This document shows, in pieces, positions 936-47,344 of a stretch of 55,436 bases of DNA. Source of the DNA: an uncultured Clostridia bacterium. GTDB lineage: Bacteria; Bacillota; Clostridia; TANB77; CAG-508. The stretch spans positions 1 through 55,436 of the forward strand of contig CAPZDM010000002.1 of NCBI GenBank assembly GCA_948745425.1. Reading direction: 5' to 3'. Below the pieces are notes generated by a model that searched no databases, was not told the DNA's origin, and saw only the letters and a program-made list of their open reading frames with translations. Position numbers and translations under genes: made by a program. Numbering within the stretch: the first letter of the stretch is position 1; every line of letters starts with the position of its first letter.

Positions 936-963
936 ACGGACGCCCGAAGGGCGCCCCTACAAT
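936..963 (+). repeat. GC-rich REP-like hairpin element (copy 1)
   Basis: acggacgcccgaagggcgcccctacaat. It has the GGAC - stem-loop - CCCCTACA architecture shared by 8 copies. Confidence 0.7.
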
Positions 964-1016
964 AACTTTATAAATCTCAATTATTTATATATTGCATTTT
1001 GTAATATTTTATAAAT

Positions 1017-2132
1017 TTACCATAATGATTTAATTGATAACATTTCTGGTATTCCTATATATACATCTTCTATATATCCTTTTTCTGCTCCTATTATAGA
1101 ATGTCTTTTTATAATTATATATGAGCCATAGTCATATATTTTTGTTCCACCATCTTTTAATATATCATCTGATATAATTCCTGCTTGTCTATCTTTTTCT
1201 GCTTGTTCTATTATTTGCTCCATTGTAATTTTTCCTGTCTTTAATGCTTCTTTTAAGTCTATTTCCTCTCCATTTATTTTAATTTTTATACTTTCTAGTC
1301 CATAGTAATATATATCATAATTATATTTCTCCTTTAACTCATCTACCGTGATTTTTTGTGTTTCCTTTTTCTCACTTGATTTTATTTCTAATAAAAAGTT
1401 GTTTTCATAATCATTTATAACTTGTACATCATTATTGTAGTAAGTAACTAATAGTTCTTCTATATTTCCTTCTACTTTTTCTTTTAATGTTATGTTAGTT
1501 CCTTCAGGTGCTTCTTCTATTTCTAGTTTTGTAAATTTGCAATTTTCATAATTTCTATCTTTTTCATTTGACCATTTGTCTCTAGTACTATCTAATATTG
1601 CTTTAAAGTTATTATTTCCTTCGAAATAAACATCTGTTATTATCATGTCTCCTTCTATGGTATAATTTATACATCTTATAAAGTCTGGTATATTATCTTT
1701 TACACTTTCTAAAAATCTATCTAATTCATCTTTGTTATACATTTTATTTCCATGAATTGATACTACACAATTATCTACTATTGCATTTATTAAACTATAT
1801 TCTTTTGGTAAATCTTTAATATTATTTGGTTTATTATTATTTTCGATTTCTATATTTGCTATAGCTCCAGTTATAAATTTATTATACATATACATTTCTG
1901 TTCTTATAATTTGTTGTGTATCATTTTTTGAAGGATAATTCTCTATTTCAACTTTATAACCTAATCCTAAATATGTAGTTGTATTATCTTGAGTTCCTTT
2001 TTTTATAACAAATACAGGAGCTTTTAAGTTTGATACATTAGTATAGTCTATAAAAAACATTACCCCTAACAAGATTATAATACAAATTATTATTCCTATA
2101 AATACTTTTAAACTTTTCTTCATTAATACCAC
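1017..2132 (-). CDS. Membrane-anchored hypothetical protein (possibly DUF4362-like), co-oriented directly downstream of the sigma gene
   Basis: 371-aa ORF with a single N-terminal TM helix (VFIGIIICIIILLGVMFFI). It lies 13 nt downstream of the sigma ORF. The family assignment is from memory only. Confidence 0.5.
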   Translation of the reverse strand: MVLMKKSLKVFIGIIICIIILLGVMFFIDYTNVSNLKAPVFVIKKGTQDNTTTYLGLGYKVEIENYPSKNDTQQIIRTEMYMYNKFITGAIANIEIENNNKPNNIKDLPKEYSLINAIVDNCVVSIHGNKMYNKDELDRFLESVKDNIPDFIRCINYTIEGDMIITDVYFEGNNNFKAILDSTRDKWSNEKDRNYENCKFTKLEIEEAPEGTNITLKEKVEGNIEELLVTYYNNDVQVINDYENNFLLEIKSSEKKETQKITVDELKEKYNYDIYYYGLESIKIKINGEEIDLKEALKTGKITMEQIIEQAEKDRQAGIISDDILKDGGTKIYDYGSYIIIKRHSIIGAEKGYIEDVYIGIPEMLSIKSLW

Positions 2133-2145
2133 CTTAACCTTTCTA

Positions 2146-3033
2146 CTATTTAGATGGTCTTTTTTTTGATTTTAGTTGGTATTTTATGAATAAAAGTGTA
2201 AAAATTATTGTTATGCATAAAAATATGGAAGAAACAACTAATATTCCTATTCCTACATAATTTAAATTGTTTACCTGTATTTGTTCTGTAACTGTGTTTT
2301 CATAAGGATTTTCTATTTCATCTTCTGTATTATTAATGGTATTTTCTGATTTCTTTGTTTCGTTTGTATCTTGTAATTTAGTATCTTCTTCCCTTTCTAC
2401 TTTATTATCTATTAATGTCTCTTGCTTTATTTCACTTCCTTTATCTTTATTAGATAATGTTTTTAATCCTATAACAAAGCTTAAAATAAATATTGCTAGA
2501 TTACTTAATAGTAATTTTAATGTATGTACACCCTTATAATATTTCCATTTTATAGTTCCAGTTGGTTTATTTAATAGTTTGGCAATTTGTTCAAATGATA
2601 AACCAGAGATTATTTTTAATGATATTATTTCTTTTTCTTTATCATCTAATTTACTGATTAGTTTATTAAATTCTTCTTTATCAATAATATTATTTATTTC
2701 ATTGTCTTTATCTTCAATTTCATAAATTGCTTCTAAATTAAAATGATTTTTCTTTTTCCTTAATAATGAAATAGCTTCGTTCTTAGTGACTGTATATATC
2801 CAACTTGCTGTGTTTTTACTTGGCAATTTTTCTTTTTCAAGTGTGTATAACTTTGAAAAAAATATTTGTACTACATCTTCTGCATCTTCTTTATTTTTAA
2901 CTATGCTAAATGCAATTCCATATATTAATTTATTATATTGTGTATATAATTTTTGAAAGGCTATATCTTTATTAACACTTTTAAGTTCTAAAAATAACTC
3001 GTTTAAATCTTCTTCATTAATCTTTGTCATCAT
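2146..3033 (-). CDS. ECF-type sigma-70 family factor with a C-terminal transmembrane extension
   Basis: Region 2 (AEDVVQIFFSKLY) and region 4 HTH (LSFEQIAKLLNKPTGTIKWKYYKG). These are followed by two hydrophobic helices (LAIFILSFVIGL, GIGILVVSSIFLCITIIFTLLFI). Confidence 0.75.
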   Translation of the reverse strand: MMTKINEEDLNELFLELKSVNKDIAFQKLYTQYNKLIYGIAFSIVKNKEDAEDVVQIFFSKLYTLEKEKLPSKNTASWIYTVTKNEAISLLRKKKNHFNLEAIYEIEDKDNEINNIIDKEEFNKLISKLDDKEKEIISLKIISGLSFEQIAKLLNKPTGTIKWKYYKGVHTLKLLLSNLAIFILSFVIGLKTLSNKDKGSEIKQETLIDNKVEREEDTKLQDTNETKKSENTINNTEDEIENPYENTVTEQIQVNNLNYVGIGILVVSSIFLCITIIFTLLFIKYQLKSKKRPSK

Positions 3034-3073
3034 TTTTTCCTTTCTTTATTATCTCATTTATGTTAGAACAAAT

Positions 3074-3099
3074 GGACAGACACAATGCCTGCCCCTACA
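3074..3099 (+). repeat. Degenerate REP-like element (copy 2)
   Basis: ggacagacacaatgcctgcccctaca. The conserved flanks GGAC and CCCCTACA are present, but the stem is weak. Confidence 0.4.
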
Positions 3100-45110: not shown

Positions 45111-45261
45111 TTCTTCACCTCCATTCTTATTAAGTATAAGACACCAAATGTTAATTTTTTATTTTGTACCATACTGTTTTATATATACATATTGTTAAAC
45201 TTTGAAATTATATTATCATATTCGACTATTTTTTACAACAAATTTTATTATTTTATAAATT

Positions 45262-45295
45262 TAAAAAATGGACGCTCAAATTGAATTGCGTCCAT
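45262..45295 (-). terminator. Rho-independent terminator downstream of the PBP (spoVD-like) fragment
   Basis: The minus strand reads atggacgc-aattcaatttga-gcgtccat followed by tttttt. Confidence 0.65.
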
Positions 45296-45308
45296 CAGTA
45301 ATTATCTA

Positions 45309-45620
45309 TTATGTTCCTATCTCACAATATATTGTTGTTCCACTATTTATAGTAATTCCTTCTTTTGGAGTTTGGTTTGTTATTATCATTTCTGAAATAT
45401 CTATTCCTTCTTCTACATTTATTTTCATTTGTAGTCCTAAATCTTTTAACATCTTTTCAGCTTCTTTTACATTCATGTTTGTAATATTAGGTACTGTTAC
45501 CTCTGTTACTGGTTCTAATTCTTCTGTATTATCTTTTTCTAGTTCTAAGTATGGTAATACTTCTGATAATATTTGTGAGCCAATTGGTGCTGCTACACCT
45601 CCTCCTTGGTTAATTATAAC
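45309..45620 (-). pseudogene. spoVD: 3' fragment of a class B penicillin-binding protein (SpoVD-like): end of the transpeptidase domain plus a PASTA domain
   Basis: The minus strand (not in the ORF track because it has no start codon) reads ..GGGVAAPIGSQILSEVLPYLELEKDNTEELEPVTEVTVPNITNMNVKEAEKMLKDLGLQMKINVEEGIDISEMIITNQTPKEGITINSGTTIYCEIGT*. The 5' limit is approximate. Confidence 0.7.
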
Positions 45621-45630
45621 AACACAAAAG

Positions 45631-47344
45631 TTATAAATTTGCCACTTGTTTTTCTAGTGTTATTTTATTATTCTCTATGTATTCTAAGCATCTCTTAAAT
45701 TCATCTTCAAATTTAAACTTTATTTTTATATCTCCTTTTTCTTTTACATATATACAATCTATTAGTTCCATCATAATATCTCTTGAAAGTTCTGTAATTC
45801 CTTTTTGCTCTTTAAATTTTTCTATCCATTCATTACTACTTATGCTTTGGCTTTCATATTTTTGTTTTTCGTTTTCTAACCTTTCAATGTTTCTCTTTAG
45901 CCTTTCAATGTCATTTTCATATTTTTGTTTATATTCTAAATATTCTTCTCTTGTAATATCTTCATTCTTCCAATCTTCATATAATGTTCTTTTATAATTA
46001 GATATTTTAGAAATTTCATTTTGTTTTTCTGCTATTGTATTTTCTATTGTTTGCGGACGAGCAATGCTCGCCCCTACATTTTTTATCTGTTTTACCAGTT
46101 CTTCTGTATCAATTAGTAAATCGATATGGAAATTAATTGCTTTTAACACTGCTCTTTCTAAATTTTCCACTTTAATAGAATGTTTTGTGCATAAGTTGTT
46201 TGATTTTTTCCTATAGGTGCTACAGATATAATATTCATATTTACTTCCGCTTTTATTTGTGCTACTTTTTTTATTCATTGCTCTTTTGCAATCTGCACAT
46301 TTGAGAAATCCTGCCCATATTGATAGTTCATTTGTTTTCTGTGATACTTTTGTATCTTTTCTTGATAACTCTTGTGCTTTTTTAAAAGTTTCTTTATCAA
46401 TAATAGCTTCATGTGTGTTCTCTACTCTTATCCATTCTTCCTTTGGAACTTGCTCCACTTTATGTACTTTATAGCTTTTCATCCTTCTTTTTCCTTGAAC
46501 AGTATTGCCTATATAAACTTCATTATTTAAAATATTTCGTACTGTCGAAGGCGTCCAAGTATATGTATTATCTTGAATTCCATAGTTATTATAATTCTGT
46601 ACTAGTTCTAATTTCTTATGTCCTGTAGGGTTTAAAACACCTAGATCATTTAATCTATGACAAATTGCTATCTTTCCTAATCCTTCATTCACATTCCAAT
46701 CAAATATATTTCTTATAATATTTGCAACACTTTTGTCAATTATTAATTTATGCTTATCTTTTGGGTCTTTAATATAACCATAAGATGGAAATGCACCTAT
46801 AAATTCTCCTTTTTTCTTTTTTCCATTTAAAGATGTTCTTATCTTAATTGATGTATCTCGGCAGTATTCATCATTTATTAAGTTTTTAAATGGTACTAAT
46901 ATTGTATTTGTGCTTGATGGATTTTTAAAACTATCTACAAAATCATTAATGGCAATAAATCTTATATTAAATAATGGAAAAACTTGCTCTATATAGTTTC
47001 CAACTTCTATATAATTTCTTCCAAGTCTTGATAAATCTTTTACAACAACACAACTAATATTTCCATTTCTCATATCTTCTAGTAATCTTTGAAATGAGGG
47101 TCTATTAAAATCTGTTCCTGTAAATCCATCATCTATATAAGTATCATAAACTATCAAATCATCATGTTCTTCTATGAATTCGTTTAATAGTGTTTTTTGA
47201 CTTGTTACACTATTACTTTCTTGCTTTTCTTTACCGATTATCTTCATCTTCTTGTGAAAGCCTTATATATAATGCAACAGACCATATCTTATTCTTTATA
47301 GTATTATTTTCATTAGAAGAATACTTTGATTTTCTCCCTGCCAT
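45631..47344 (-). CDS. Large serine recombinase of the spoVD element, with an apparent +1 frameshift at CGG 47236-47234
   Basis: The true start is at 47344 (RBS aaggag): MAGRKSKYSSNENNTIKNKIWSVALYIRLSQEDEDN-(c)-GKEKQESNSVTSQKTLL... This supplies the catalytic YxRxS motif that is missing from ORF 45631-47247. Also has a recombinase domain, a zinc ribbon and a coiled coil. Confidence 0.85.
46053..46078 (+). repeat. REP-like hairpin (copy 8) inside the recombinase coding sequence, in-frame
   Basis: gcggacgagcaatgctcgcccctaca with stem CGAGC/GCTCG. Translated on the minus strand as VGASIARPQ. Confidence 0.6.

Follow-up and report, generated by a model that had tools for sequence, protein, structure and literature searches.

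GTAG-headed hairpins of a clostridial genome: a REP-type repeat family and its predicted RAYT-like enzyme

The DNA that we analysed, hereafter the window, is a stretch of 55,436 nt with 26% GC from an uncultured Clostridia bacterium (CAPZDM010000002.1). A sequence-only reading had pointed to eight copies of a GC-rich hairpin in it, one of them inverted (17691), and all eight are present:

936..961, minus strand: REP, TGTAG GGGCGCCC ttc GGGCGTCC GT, with one G.T wobble, next to a response-regulator gene (192-872) and a DUF4362 gene (1017-2132)
3074..3099, minus strand: REP, TGTAG GGGCAGGCA ttg TGTCTGTCC, with a 9-bp stem and two G.T wobbles, next to a sigma-factor gene (2146-3033) and a Na/Ca-exchanger gene (3138-4097)
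5865..5891, minus strand: REP with a mutated head, ATAG GGGCGATT att AATCGCCC, immediately past the tsaE stop codon
6263..6288, minus strand: REP, GTAG GGGTGCCC ttt GGGCGTCC, inside tsaB and antisense to it
9515..9540, minus strand: REP, GTAG GGACGCCC aaa GGGCGTCC, with a perfect stem, between the convergent genes lonC-like (7087-9504) and yunB (9590-10270)
17691..17716, plus strand: REP, stem type GGGCACAT/ATGTGCCC, which forms an inverted, REPIN/BIME-like doublet with the copy at 17768 and is its left half
17768..17793, minus strand: REP, GTAG GGGCGCCC ttt GGGCGTCC, right half of the doublet with the copy at 17691, next to the 5' part of yabG (17100-17561) and an anti-sigma gene (17868-18794)
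46053..46078, minus strand: REP, GTAG GGGCGAGC att GCTCGTCC, within the gene for a large serine recombinase (45631-47247)

On one strand, all eight follow a common plan: a (T)GTAG head followed by a GC-rich 8-bp stem whose two arms enclose a 3-nt loop. The shared head, stem and loop had been recognized before, but the outer 'GGAC' and 'CCCC' described with them turned out to be the outer stem pairs and not separate boxes, and the stems listed at the time cover just the inner portion of the true stem, which measures 8 bp (in copy 3074, 9 bp). Likewise, the GTAG said to be conserved abuts the stem directly in seven copies, but the copy at 5865 has ATAG, while its orthologues in the relatives L120 and L121 keep GTAG. 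G·T wobbles occur on the GTAG strand only; the outer stem pairs, for example, include one that is an A.C mismatch on the plus strand and a G.T wobble on the GTAG strand. The eight copies represent five or more stem types; two of them carry two wobbles each, and four combine an intact head with at most one wobble. Within the window their density is 0.14 per kb (8 in 55 kb), and with six intergenic copies and two in frame within ORFs they are mainly extragenic, as REPs are. The heads of the inverted doublet (17691-17793) point outward across a 53-nt spacer.

We then compared these numbers with chance. The word CCCCTACA occurs six times in the window against 0.21 expected, and GTAG followed by a stem that is GC-rich and 8 bp or longer gave seven strict copies, as opposed to none in 200 first-order Markov simulations. 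GC-rich 8-bp hairpins give 11 strand-readings in the window, all from family members (seven with GTAG, one with ATAG and three complementary-strand readings of perfect palindromes), and each of the five islands that reach 70% GC or more is a family member too. Covariation among seven window copies was also marked: paired cells reached 100% compared with 84% in shuffles, four of the eight stem pairs were changed on both sides, and the score of 0.619 (0.264 in shuffles) was reached by none of 500 shuffles, slid registers giving 0.125 at most. Folding of the single-stranded DNA was tested for four copies, and in each of them the GTAG strand came out more stable than the complementary one (-7.8/-6.2, -4.6/-1.4, -5.3/-3.4 and -8.1/-5.2 kcal/mol), with z values on the GTAG strand from -1.6 to -3.7. 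The first of these pairs belongs to copy 936 (z -3.2), and in copy 3074 the GTAG strand alone folds (-4.6 vs -1.4 kcal/mol). A search of Rfam, which bears on the possibility that the motif is part of a known regulatory RNA, found no family matching the hairpin.

The GTAG head lies on the minus strand in seven of the eight window copies, three of them antisense to a local plus-strand operon, and by GC skew the minus strand carries leading-strand sequence. Of 49 copies in AT-rich loci, 43 are on the strand whose GC skew is positive; this strand bias is not cleanly separable from the gene-strand bias.

Both intragenic copies are in frame, as the sequence-only reading had claimed. The tsaB copy encodes TDAQRAPLQ and is missing from TsaB of L115, L116 and L118; in L120 and L121 this protein loop of TsaB also holds a REP, but one with a different stem type (GGGCGAGC). 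The recombinase copy lies in sense orientation and encodes NVGASIARPQ, which is the N-terminal motif of many RAYT-family proteins. In about three quarters of 120 close recombinase homologues (83-93% identity), the REP site is taken by an unrelated stretch of equal length, 30 nt.

A comparison of insertion sites in syntenic relatives (L115-L121) gave a different picture at each site, with copies gained, lost or eroded one by one; five of the seven loci carry 1-3 REPs per 11-16 kb. The site of copy 5865 is an eroded, AT-enriched remnant in L115 and L118. These two loci have no copy at the site of copy 9515, where L120 and L121 read GTAA GGACACGA tata TCGTGTCC. The copies at tsaE-tsaB and upstream of yabG are orthologous across species or genera, and the doublet arrangement of 17691-17793 is also found in L032. 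The 17768 copy has a 27-nt core that is identical in L032 and L100, across genera, although the whole matched stretches are only 77-79% identical, which argues for ongoing constraint or homogenisation. With their orthologous sites, one mutated head and two double-wobble copies, some of the window copies give the impression of age and not of a recent move.

The family is not restricted to the window. At least 113 loci contain its commonest variant, TGTAGGGRCGCCCNNNGGGCGTCCG, in exact form; they belong to Ruminococcus, Anaerotruncus, Acutalibacteraceae, Peptococcaceae and numerous MAGs of Clostridia, and a near-identical core occurs in genomes of 26-62% GC. The Ruminococcus loci contain inverted pairs and tandem arrays in the style of BIMEs. 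The eight hairpins are members of a REP-type repeat family widespread in gut Clostridia.

No Y1 transposase or RAYT gene was found in the 55-kb window, so the REP/RAYT reading that had been proposed finds its support in relatives and not in this genome. With E. coli RayT as the query, phmmer identified three homologues in REP loci (L025, L042 and L103), with REPs within them or at most 30 nt away. The GTAG-plus-hairpin sequence of the 17691 copy (23 nt) adjoins the RAYT-like gene of L025 and recurs inside it, and the MAG MGBC114284, a region of which is orthologous to 17.7 kb of the window, encodes a RAYT with the stem type GGGCACAT that is also present in the window. Among solved structures, E. 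coli TnpA-REP (4ER8) was the only sequence match of the clostridial RAYT-like proteins; it was also the top Foldseek match of an AlphaFold model (pLDDT 84; E 3.6e-8), followed by the TnpA proteins of IS608 and ISDra2. The best NCBIfam match of all four RAYT proteins tested was NF047646 ("REP-associated tyrosine transposase"), although only P0005 exceeded its curated equivalog cut-off and the other three fell below; NF033573 matched one of the four weakly. Pfam Y1_Tnp matched 72 of 85 RAYT-like proteins, and in sets of 20 and of 85 sequences there was no variation at the residues H89, H91, Y151, N155 and P156 of the HUH and Y---NP motifs; Y---NP is the class 2 signature (PMC6006769). Judged by sequence and modelled fold, this is a large clostridial HUH-Y1 family closest to TnpA-REP.

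A closer look at the RAYT genes unveiled REPs inside them. In 72 of 80 independent metagenomic RAYT loci (27-65% GC), the gene contains an inverted pair: near +125 nt a GTAG hairpin is read on the coding strand, and some 171 nt from it, near +295 nt, comes its reverse complement; in a few loci (L103, L164, L165, L168 and L200) the first REP lies just upstream of the gene. In most RAYT genes the two sites have the same or nearly identical stem in reverse-complement orientation, and the stems vary among lineages. Since the pair lies in the reading frame, stem changes would rewrite the protein: in the VGAxIxRP motif, the amino-acid pairs S-A, P-G, T-G, R-A, N-V and H-M follow codon complementarity. 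With the internal site placed via the protein alignment, paired cells made up 83.7% compared with 66.1% in shuffles, 52 cells were changed on both sides compared with 16.4, and the covariation score was 0.443 against 0.155 (reached in 0 of 500 shuffles). Together with the window copies, this bears out the earlier suggestion of selection on structure. Extragenic REPs near RAYT genes match the local internal stem exactly in 32% of cases, compared with 3.4% under the null. An inverted cognate pair carried in the gene, at two loop-coding positions on the two sides of the HUH motif, would keep enzyme and substrate linked, and the two would change together. These results suggest, at somewhat short of even odds, that the RAYT gene stores its own cognate REP pair in frame, in two disordered loops flanking the HUH motif, that predicted enzyme and substrate evolve as a unit, and that this cassette is also able to insert in frame into ORFs of the host, tsaB and the recombinase being examples. 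If true, this would be a previously undescribed REP/RAYT organisation, possibly self-templating or autoregulatory, and no REP system of gut Firmicutes would have been characterised before it.

It is very probable that the hairpins are GTAG-tagged REPs, that is non-autonomous ssDNA hairpin repeats of a family common to many Clostridia, and that their predicted cognate enzyme is a clostridial RAYT subfamily (TnpA-REP-like HUH-Y1). The link between REP and RAYT was seen in relatives, and the cognate RAYT of this organism is putative. A RAYT-like nuclease most likely moves the hairpin; for the clostridial family, we infer transposition and cleavage activity from E. coli TnpA-REP. As with E. coli TnpA-REP and IS200/IS605 TnpA, the RAYT may be encoded elsewhere in the genome. 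It would bind the folded GTAG-strand hairpin when this becomes single-stranded at the replication fork, as lagging-strand template, would read the GTAG foot, and would cut and rejoin the ssDNA, with REPs being copied or moved as a result. New copies would last only where they are tolerated, in 3' intergenic regions and in variable surface loops of proteins, and within ORFs only in a frame where TAG is not read as a stop.

A different history is conceivable though rather unlikely, namely that an ancestral RAYT spread REPs that are now inherited vertically, some kept by a host function and others eroding, in an organism without an active enzyme. The orthologous copies that different species or genera share site for site, the eroded remnants in L115 and L118, the ATAG head of one window copy and the two wobbles in each of two others would fit such a relic, as would five or more stem types among eight copies and a 55-kb window without a RAYT. 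However, four copies retain an intact head with at most one wobble, the 27-nt core of 17768 is identical across genera despite the lower overall identity, and MGBC114284, with its region orthologous to 17.7 kb of the window, encodes a RAYT with one of the window's stem types. It seems improbable that the hairpins act at the RNA level, as intrinsic terminators or 3' mRNA stabilisers whose spread and conservation come from RNA function and not from DNA mobility. E. coli REPs do stabilise mRNA (PMC6006769), four window copies follow a gene and are oriented in sense with it, three of the eight were predicted as terminator-like when read on the GTAG strand, their T-rich tails being weak, and G.U pairs in RNA are as acceptable as G.T pairs in ssDNA. 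Nevertheless, weak T tails come in a genome of 74% A+T, two copies sit within ORFs, and those at 5865, 6263 and 9515 are antisense to local transcripts or lie beyond their real terminator; an intrinsic terminator was rejected on these grounds. A terminator role would also leave unexplained the invariant GTAG head, the core shared at 26-62% GC and the RAYT-internal pair.

The ends of autonomous IS200/IS605 elements, which are common in Clostridia, are subterminal hairpins recognised by Y1 TnpA (PMC6006769), and the IS608 and ISDra2 enzymes were the second-best structural matches. We nonetheless give very little credence to the window copies being such ends, or miniature PATE/MITE-like derivatives of them, instead of REPs: each consists of one 26-nt hairpin, with no left end paired to a right end, the hairpins of the RAYT genes are inverted and within the ORF and not same-strand left and right ends flanking the gene, the protein bears the class 2 Y---NP motif, and the gene is closest to TnpA-REP, with NF047646 as the best match in all four cases and NF033573 a weak one in a single case. 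In the loci inspected, neither an adjacent tnpB nor any recurrent neighbouring gene was found, and an IS200/IS605 insertion sequence was rejected.

As GTAG-tagged REPs with a predicted RAYT, the clostridial elements resemble those of E. coli, Pseudomonas and Stenotrophomonas (REPtron, BIME/REPIN). Both are imperfect palindromes of 20-40 nt with a GTAG foot on one strand, dispersed in mainly extragenic copies, which are probably numerous in the clostridial case as well, with inverted doublets, arrays and several stem types per genome; in both, an HUH-Y1 protein with Y---NP (for the clostridial one, nearest to 4ER8 in sequence and fold) has REPs clustered at its gene, and the local REP type fits the gene. 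They differ from the classical systems in the host phylum, Bacillota (Clostridia), which the REP surveys consulted do not mention and in which only Group 1 RAYTs are reported (Bertels 2017). The clostridial hairpin is also very short and regular (8 bp with a 3-nt loop), its core is near-identical over genomes of 26-62% GC, its copies also lie in frame within host ORFs, and the RAYT reading frame itself contains the cognate pair, while REPs of the classical kind stand on either side of the gene. With IS200/IS605 elements (IS608, ISDra2) the system shares the Y1 HUH fold and, by analogy, probably the recognition of an ssDNA hairpin with an adjacent guide tetranucleotide, and its strand bias is consistent with an enzyme that acts on the lagging-strand template. 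Unlike them, it has no same-strand left and right ends and, in the loci inspected, no tnpB, its gene is not bounded by hairpins, and the protein is less similar to their enzymes than to TnpA-REP.

In-frame palindromic insertion is also a feature of Rickettsia palindromic elements (RPEs). These repeats insert in frame in protein-coding genes and add short peptides in tolerated loops, but they are longer (100-150 bp) and have no GTAG foot, and they are not known to have a cognate HUH enzyme. Finally, the window contains a CRISPR array (37189-38865); a CRISPR repeat was rejected as the identity of the hairpins, as the array has an unrelated 30-nt repeat and the REP copies are dispersed.

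All eight GC-rich hairpins listed by the sequence-only reading were found in the window, a chromosome segment of a spore-forming Clostridium-like bacterium with a GC content of 26% that carries yabG, yunB, a SipL-domain gene (Pfam PF12673), tsaE, tsaB and type I-B cas genes. Read on the strand that presents first the head and then the hairpin (the GTAG strand), the eight copies share a common plan of (T)GTAG, a GC-rich 8-bp stem, a 3-nt loop and the closing stem; the stem of copy 3074 is 9 bp long, and the head of copy 5865 is ATAG instead of GTAG. The plan proposed earlier held for the hairpin with its GTAG, but the 'GGAC' and 'CCCC' taken for outer boxes are outer stem pairs, whose A.C mismatch on the plus strand becomes a G.T wobble when the GTAG strand is read. 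G.T wobbles are confined to the GTAG strand throughout the family and, when folded as single-stranded DNA, this strand performed better than its complement in all four copies tested.

The motif is far more frequent than chance would allow. While 0.21 occurrences of CCCCTACA were expected in the window, we counted six, and GTAG followed by a GC-rich stem of 8 bp or more occurred seven times, compared with none in 200 simulated sequences; all the GC-rich 8-bp hairpins of the window are members of the family. An ungapped alignment of seven window copies had 100% paired cells, both sides changed in four of the eight pairs, and the covariation score was 0.619 against 0.264 in shuffled alignments (0/500 shuffles; slid registers ≤0.125). 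This stem covariation bears out the selection on structure that had been suggested.

Six of the eight copies are intergenic and two lie within ORFs, both of them in frame, as the sequence-only reading had noted for tsaB and the recombinase:

45631-47247, serine recombinase gene: in-frame REP, encoding NVGASIARPQ
tsaB: in-frame REP on the strand opposite to the gene, encoding TDAQRAPLQ
17691 (+) and 17768 (−): inverted doublet, heads outward, 53-nt spacer

The GTAG lies on the minus strand in seven of the eight copies. Since the GC skew of the plus strand is negative along the window, except at 6-10 kb, where the genes are on the plus strand, the minus strand corresponds to the leading-strand sequence. 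Copies 5865, 6263 and 9515 lie inside or beside a plus-strand operon and are therefore antisense to local transcription while still keeping the replication-strand rule. Congruently, the GTAG was on the leading-strand sequence in 43 of 49 copies from AT-rich loci. This bias fits a mechanism acting on single-stranded DNA at the fork, and outside the plus-strand operon of the window it is inseparable from gene-strand bias.

The family is not restricted to the window, as a scan for TGTAGGGRCGCCCNNNGGGCGTCCG in one genome per species located it in at least 113 stretches elsewhere. Among the matches listed, the hosts include Ruminococcus flavefaciens and other Ruminococcus, Anaerotruncus sp. MC2020, Acutalibacteraceae, Peptococcaceae, Bengtsoniella and many Clostridia MAGs, and the REP core is the same across loci of 26% to 62% GC. 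None of these genomes belongs to the species of the window, because blastn of the window against the REP loci (at least 113) gave only four short matches. Where the genome is richer in GC, copies of the motif pair in inverted orientation with a second stem type and also line up in tandem arrays (periods of 55, 60 and 112 nt), an arrangement like that of BIMEs. In the arrays of three Ruminococcus and Anaerotruncus MC2020 loci (L057, L031 and L088; periods of 112, 55 and 60 nt, respectively) the 'spacers' recur from one locus to another, which makes the array unit a longer, composite repeat like a BIME rather than a CRISPR. No Rfam family matched the window at the gathering threshold, which speaks against a known regulatory RNA, and no exact match to the motif was detected in the IMG/VR viral contigs scanned.

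ORF clustering across the REP loci (at least 113) yielded no recurrent neighbouring gene, and RAYT genes surfaced only by profile search. With E. coli RayT (from NC_000913) as the query, a phmmer search of every ORF in the REP loci and in the window recovered three homologues, in the REP-bearing loci L025, L042 and L103, each with REPs inside the gene or at most 30 nt away, and none among the ORFs of the window. The proposed mobilisation by a RAYT is thus backed by RAYT-like HUH-Y1 genes linked to the motif in relatives, but not by a gene in the window itself. By sequence, the sole relative of solved structure is E. coli TnpA-REP in complex with a REP hairpin (4ER8), and an AlphaFold model of the RAYT-like protein built from 85 homologues (mean pLDDT 84.3) retrieved 4ER8 as the best Foldseek match (E 3.6e-8), followed by the ISDra2, IS608 and IS200 TnpA proteins. 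NCBIfam NF047646, 'REP-associated tyrosine transposase', was the top match in the four members searched, in only one of them above the curated cut-off, and Pfam Y1_Tnp matched 72 of 85 family members. The HUH histidines and the Y---NP motif, the signature of class 2 (RAYT) enzymes (Quentin et al., 2018, PMC6006769), are invariant in the family. Of 8000 candidate proteins scored, 7995 were related to it at E ≤ 1e-5, and the few that carry a name are annotated as 'transposase' or 'REP element-mobilizing transposase RayT'. A tblastn search of plasmids with the RAYT gave four matches, all distant.

A closer link between hairpin and enzyme lies within the RAYT-like gene. Nearly all family members contain the peptide motifs VGAxIxRP, near the N-terminus, and GRxMxAPT, right after the HUH strand. 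The DNA encoding the former (GTA GGG GCx xxx xxx xxx CGx CCG) is a REP on the coding strand, and that encoding the latter (GGx CGx xxx xxx xxx GCC CCT ACA) is a REP on the other strand. An in-frame inverted REP pair was present within the gene in 72 of 80 metagenomic RAYT loci (L122-L201; 27-65% GC), at positions of roughly +110-170 nt (first REP) and +275-345 nt (second REP), with a median spacing of 171 nt; in L103, L164, L165, L168 and L200 the first REP is just upstream of the start codon. When the internal sites were placed by protein alignment, without any hairpin search, the two sites of most RAYT genes had identical or almost identical stems, oriented as reverse complements of each other, while stems varied widely between RAYT lineages (GCGAAC, GCGACC, GCGATT, GCGGAT, GCGCGC, GCGCAC, GCGAGC and others). 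Among 37 distinct sequences of site 1, 83.7% of cells were paired compared with 66.1% in shuffled alignments, 52 cells had changed on both sides compared with 16.4, and the covariation score was 0.443 compared with 0.155 (0/500; slid registers ≤0.173). The amino-acid pairs found in the RAYT motif (S-A, P-G, T-G, R-A, N-V and H-M) are those predicted from complementary codons, and stem complementarity dictates the amino-acid covariation in the protein. The REP-encoded peptides lie in two low-confidence loops of the model (residues 41-50, mean pLDDT 57; residues 101-110, mean 68) that flank the HUH motif in RAYT-like proteins. E. coli RayT lacks both REP-encoded stretches; the intragenic GTAG-hairpin detector is unsuited to the bulged REPs of E. 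coli.

The extragenic REPs of these loci matched the internal stem of the local gene exactly in 32% of cases, compared with 3.4% for the stems of other loci, and those within 100 nt of the RAYT gene were mostly exact or one-base matches. Each stem type of the window is found again inside the RAYT genes of particular lineages, as an internal REP:

Window stem types and the RAYT genes in which they recur
GGGCGCCC: internal REP of P0001, the RAYT-like protein of L042
GGGCGAGC: internal REP, common VGASIARP form
GGGCGATT: internal REP in L128 and L171
GGGCACAT: internal REP in L025

Starting from close TsaB homologues (71-80% identity), we reached the syntenic contigs L115-L121 (tsaE-tsaB-rimI-lonC-yunB), and REP content differed site by site among these and the window. 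The tsaE-tsaB copy has a GTAG head in L120 and L121 and is eroded towards A+T in L115 and L118; a rimI-lonC copy occurs in five relatives but not in the window, whose spacer is 9 nt; and the lonC-yunB copy of the window is missing from L115 and L118, the same site in L120 and L121 having a GTAA-headed hairpin with another stem. The TsaB REP lies in a variable loop, with no REP in L115, L116 and L118, a net gain of 12 nt in the window and a gain of 42 nt, with stem GGGCGAGC, in L120 and L121. At the recombinase site (46048-46080), about three quarters of 120 close homologues (P0264-P0383) hold an unrelated AT-rich 30-nt segment of equal length, so this REP is not a net insertion; in the remaining homologues these codons are occupied by REPs, of several stem types. 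Locus L205 was part of this comparison. The flanks of the recombinase alleles are 84-89% identical at the DNA level, and the REP-less allele matches the REP at 2-4 of 23 positions. Swapping of whole-hairpin cassettes had no clear support among these alleles (cassettes 65-96% identical, 15-22 of 23 nt; flanks 84-88%), and judging from the sequences the stem differences are compatible with in-situ compensatory change. REPs have been gained, lost and eroded at orthologous sites. A tblastn search of phages with the recombinase returned only homologues of at most 44% identity.

The 27-nt core of copy 17768 is identical in L032 and L100, REP-bearing loci of other genera, the whole matched stretches being 77-79% identical. 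About 60 nt beside this copy (17794-17850; …ATCATCCCCACAAACACAAATTT…) are conserved with the same two loci and may be a regulatory element upstream of yabG. The tsaB gene (5944-6643), normally essential, is split into ORFs of 72 and 176 aa by an extra base near 6143 in the conserved GPGSFTG-coding motif (GGACCA-C-GGTTC). The frameshift is identical in L120 and L121, which belong to a different species with TsaB ~77% identical, and is not found in L115, L116 and L118; many tsaB homologues in databases begin at the second ORF.

These hairpins are strand-asymmetric, structure-constrained, GTAG-footed and present in many copies across Clostridia, and in the genomes of relatives they are tightly linked, in sequence and in position, to a RAYT-like HUH-Y1 gene family. 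A role purely in termination or RNA stability does not explain the copies in general: a terminator scan flagged three of the eight copies, with weak tails, but left five unflagged, and two copies lie within ORFs and three are antisense. Nor do the hairpins fit as IS200/IS605 ends, being inverted and intragenic, with a protein closest to RAYT. The hairpins and the gene family are a real feature and, in kind, a REP/RAYT system, as the sequence-only reading had put it, with the enzyme seen in relatives and not in this genome; that the window's copies are relics in a genome without a resident RAYT seems to us possible, though rather unlikely. By analogy with E. coli TnpA-REP (Ton-Hoang et al., 2012, PMC3333891; Messing et al., 2012, PMC3479197), which serves as the model, and with IS608/ISDra2, the RAYT would bind the GTAG strand in its folded form, while the fork leaves it single-stranded, read the GTAG foot, and cut and rejoin the single-stranded DNA. 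Copies within ORFs would survive solely in tolerant loops and in frames without a TAG stop.

Our results point to a REP/RAYT system of very large size among the Clostridia of gut and rumen. To our knowledge, such systems have been studied almost solely in Proteobacteria. The REP surveys of Nunvar (2010), Ton-Hoang (2012, PMC3333891) and Di Nocera (2013) mention neither Clostridia nor Firmicutes, and RepRanger (2025) does not mention Clostridia, its sole Bacillota entry being a table row of three genomes. In the literature searched, the single passing mention of RAYT/REPIN in Firmicutes or Clostridia was that of Bertels (2017), who noted Group 1 RAYTs in Clostridia but no abundant 16-mer associated with them. 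In Quentin et al. (2018, PMC6006769) the REPs described flank the gene, and no REPs are given for subclasses 2.1 and 2.3. While classical REPtrons lack an intragenic pair, the clostridial family has its cognate hairpin pair within the nuclease reading frame; we found no description of REPs embedded in a RAYT reading frame in our non-exhaustive literature search. The pair could serve in enzyme-substrate linkage, autoregulation or templating, and it offers a direct handle on the co-evolution of REP specificity and RAYT and on possible RAYT self-regulation or self-templating. The family also accounts for odd GC-rich islands and for lineage-specific loops of 8-14 residues in proteins of AT-rich Clostridia and, since copies differ between syntenic relatives, they are usable as strain-level markers.

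The window has other features of its own. A type I-B CRISPR-Cas locus (34298-45110) comprises cas3, cas2, cas1, cas4, cas5, cas7, a cas8b-like gene and cas6, with an array at ~37189-38865 whose repeat is CTTCACATTCTAGTATATTTATATAACAAC; as this differs from the hairpins, a CRISPR repeat was excluded as their identity. An insert of ~4.36 kb separates the 5' part of yabG (Peptidase_U57; 17100-17561, −) from its 3' part (12388-12741, −). It contains an RloB-like gene, an AAA_21 ATPase gene and a large serine recombinase gene broken into two overlapping ORFs (12780-13985 and 13918-14766). In L115, L117 and L121 a comparable insert has a PemK toxin gene together with a recombinase that is intact (659 aa), and yabG is uninterrupted (268 aa) in L116 and L120; the insert resembles a skin-type sporulation intervening element. 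The REP-bearing recombinase adjoins a defence-island-like cluster (47250-55436):

48003-49499: OLD-like AAA/TOPRIM protein
49471-51831: STAND NTPase; its match to the Mrr nuclease domain is marginal and below the cut-off
52070-52837: C5 cytosine methylase
52916-53440: Bsp6I-like endonuclease

Homologous recombinases adjoin other defence cargo in L202-L205. Finally, at 27852-33413 a cohesin-domain protein (238 aa) adjoins a 1607-aa protein that combines NPCBM, F5/8 type C and dockerin domains, and the two suggest a cellulosome-like surface complex.
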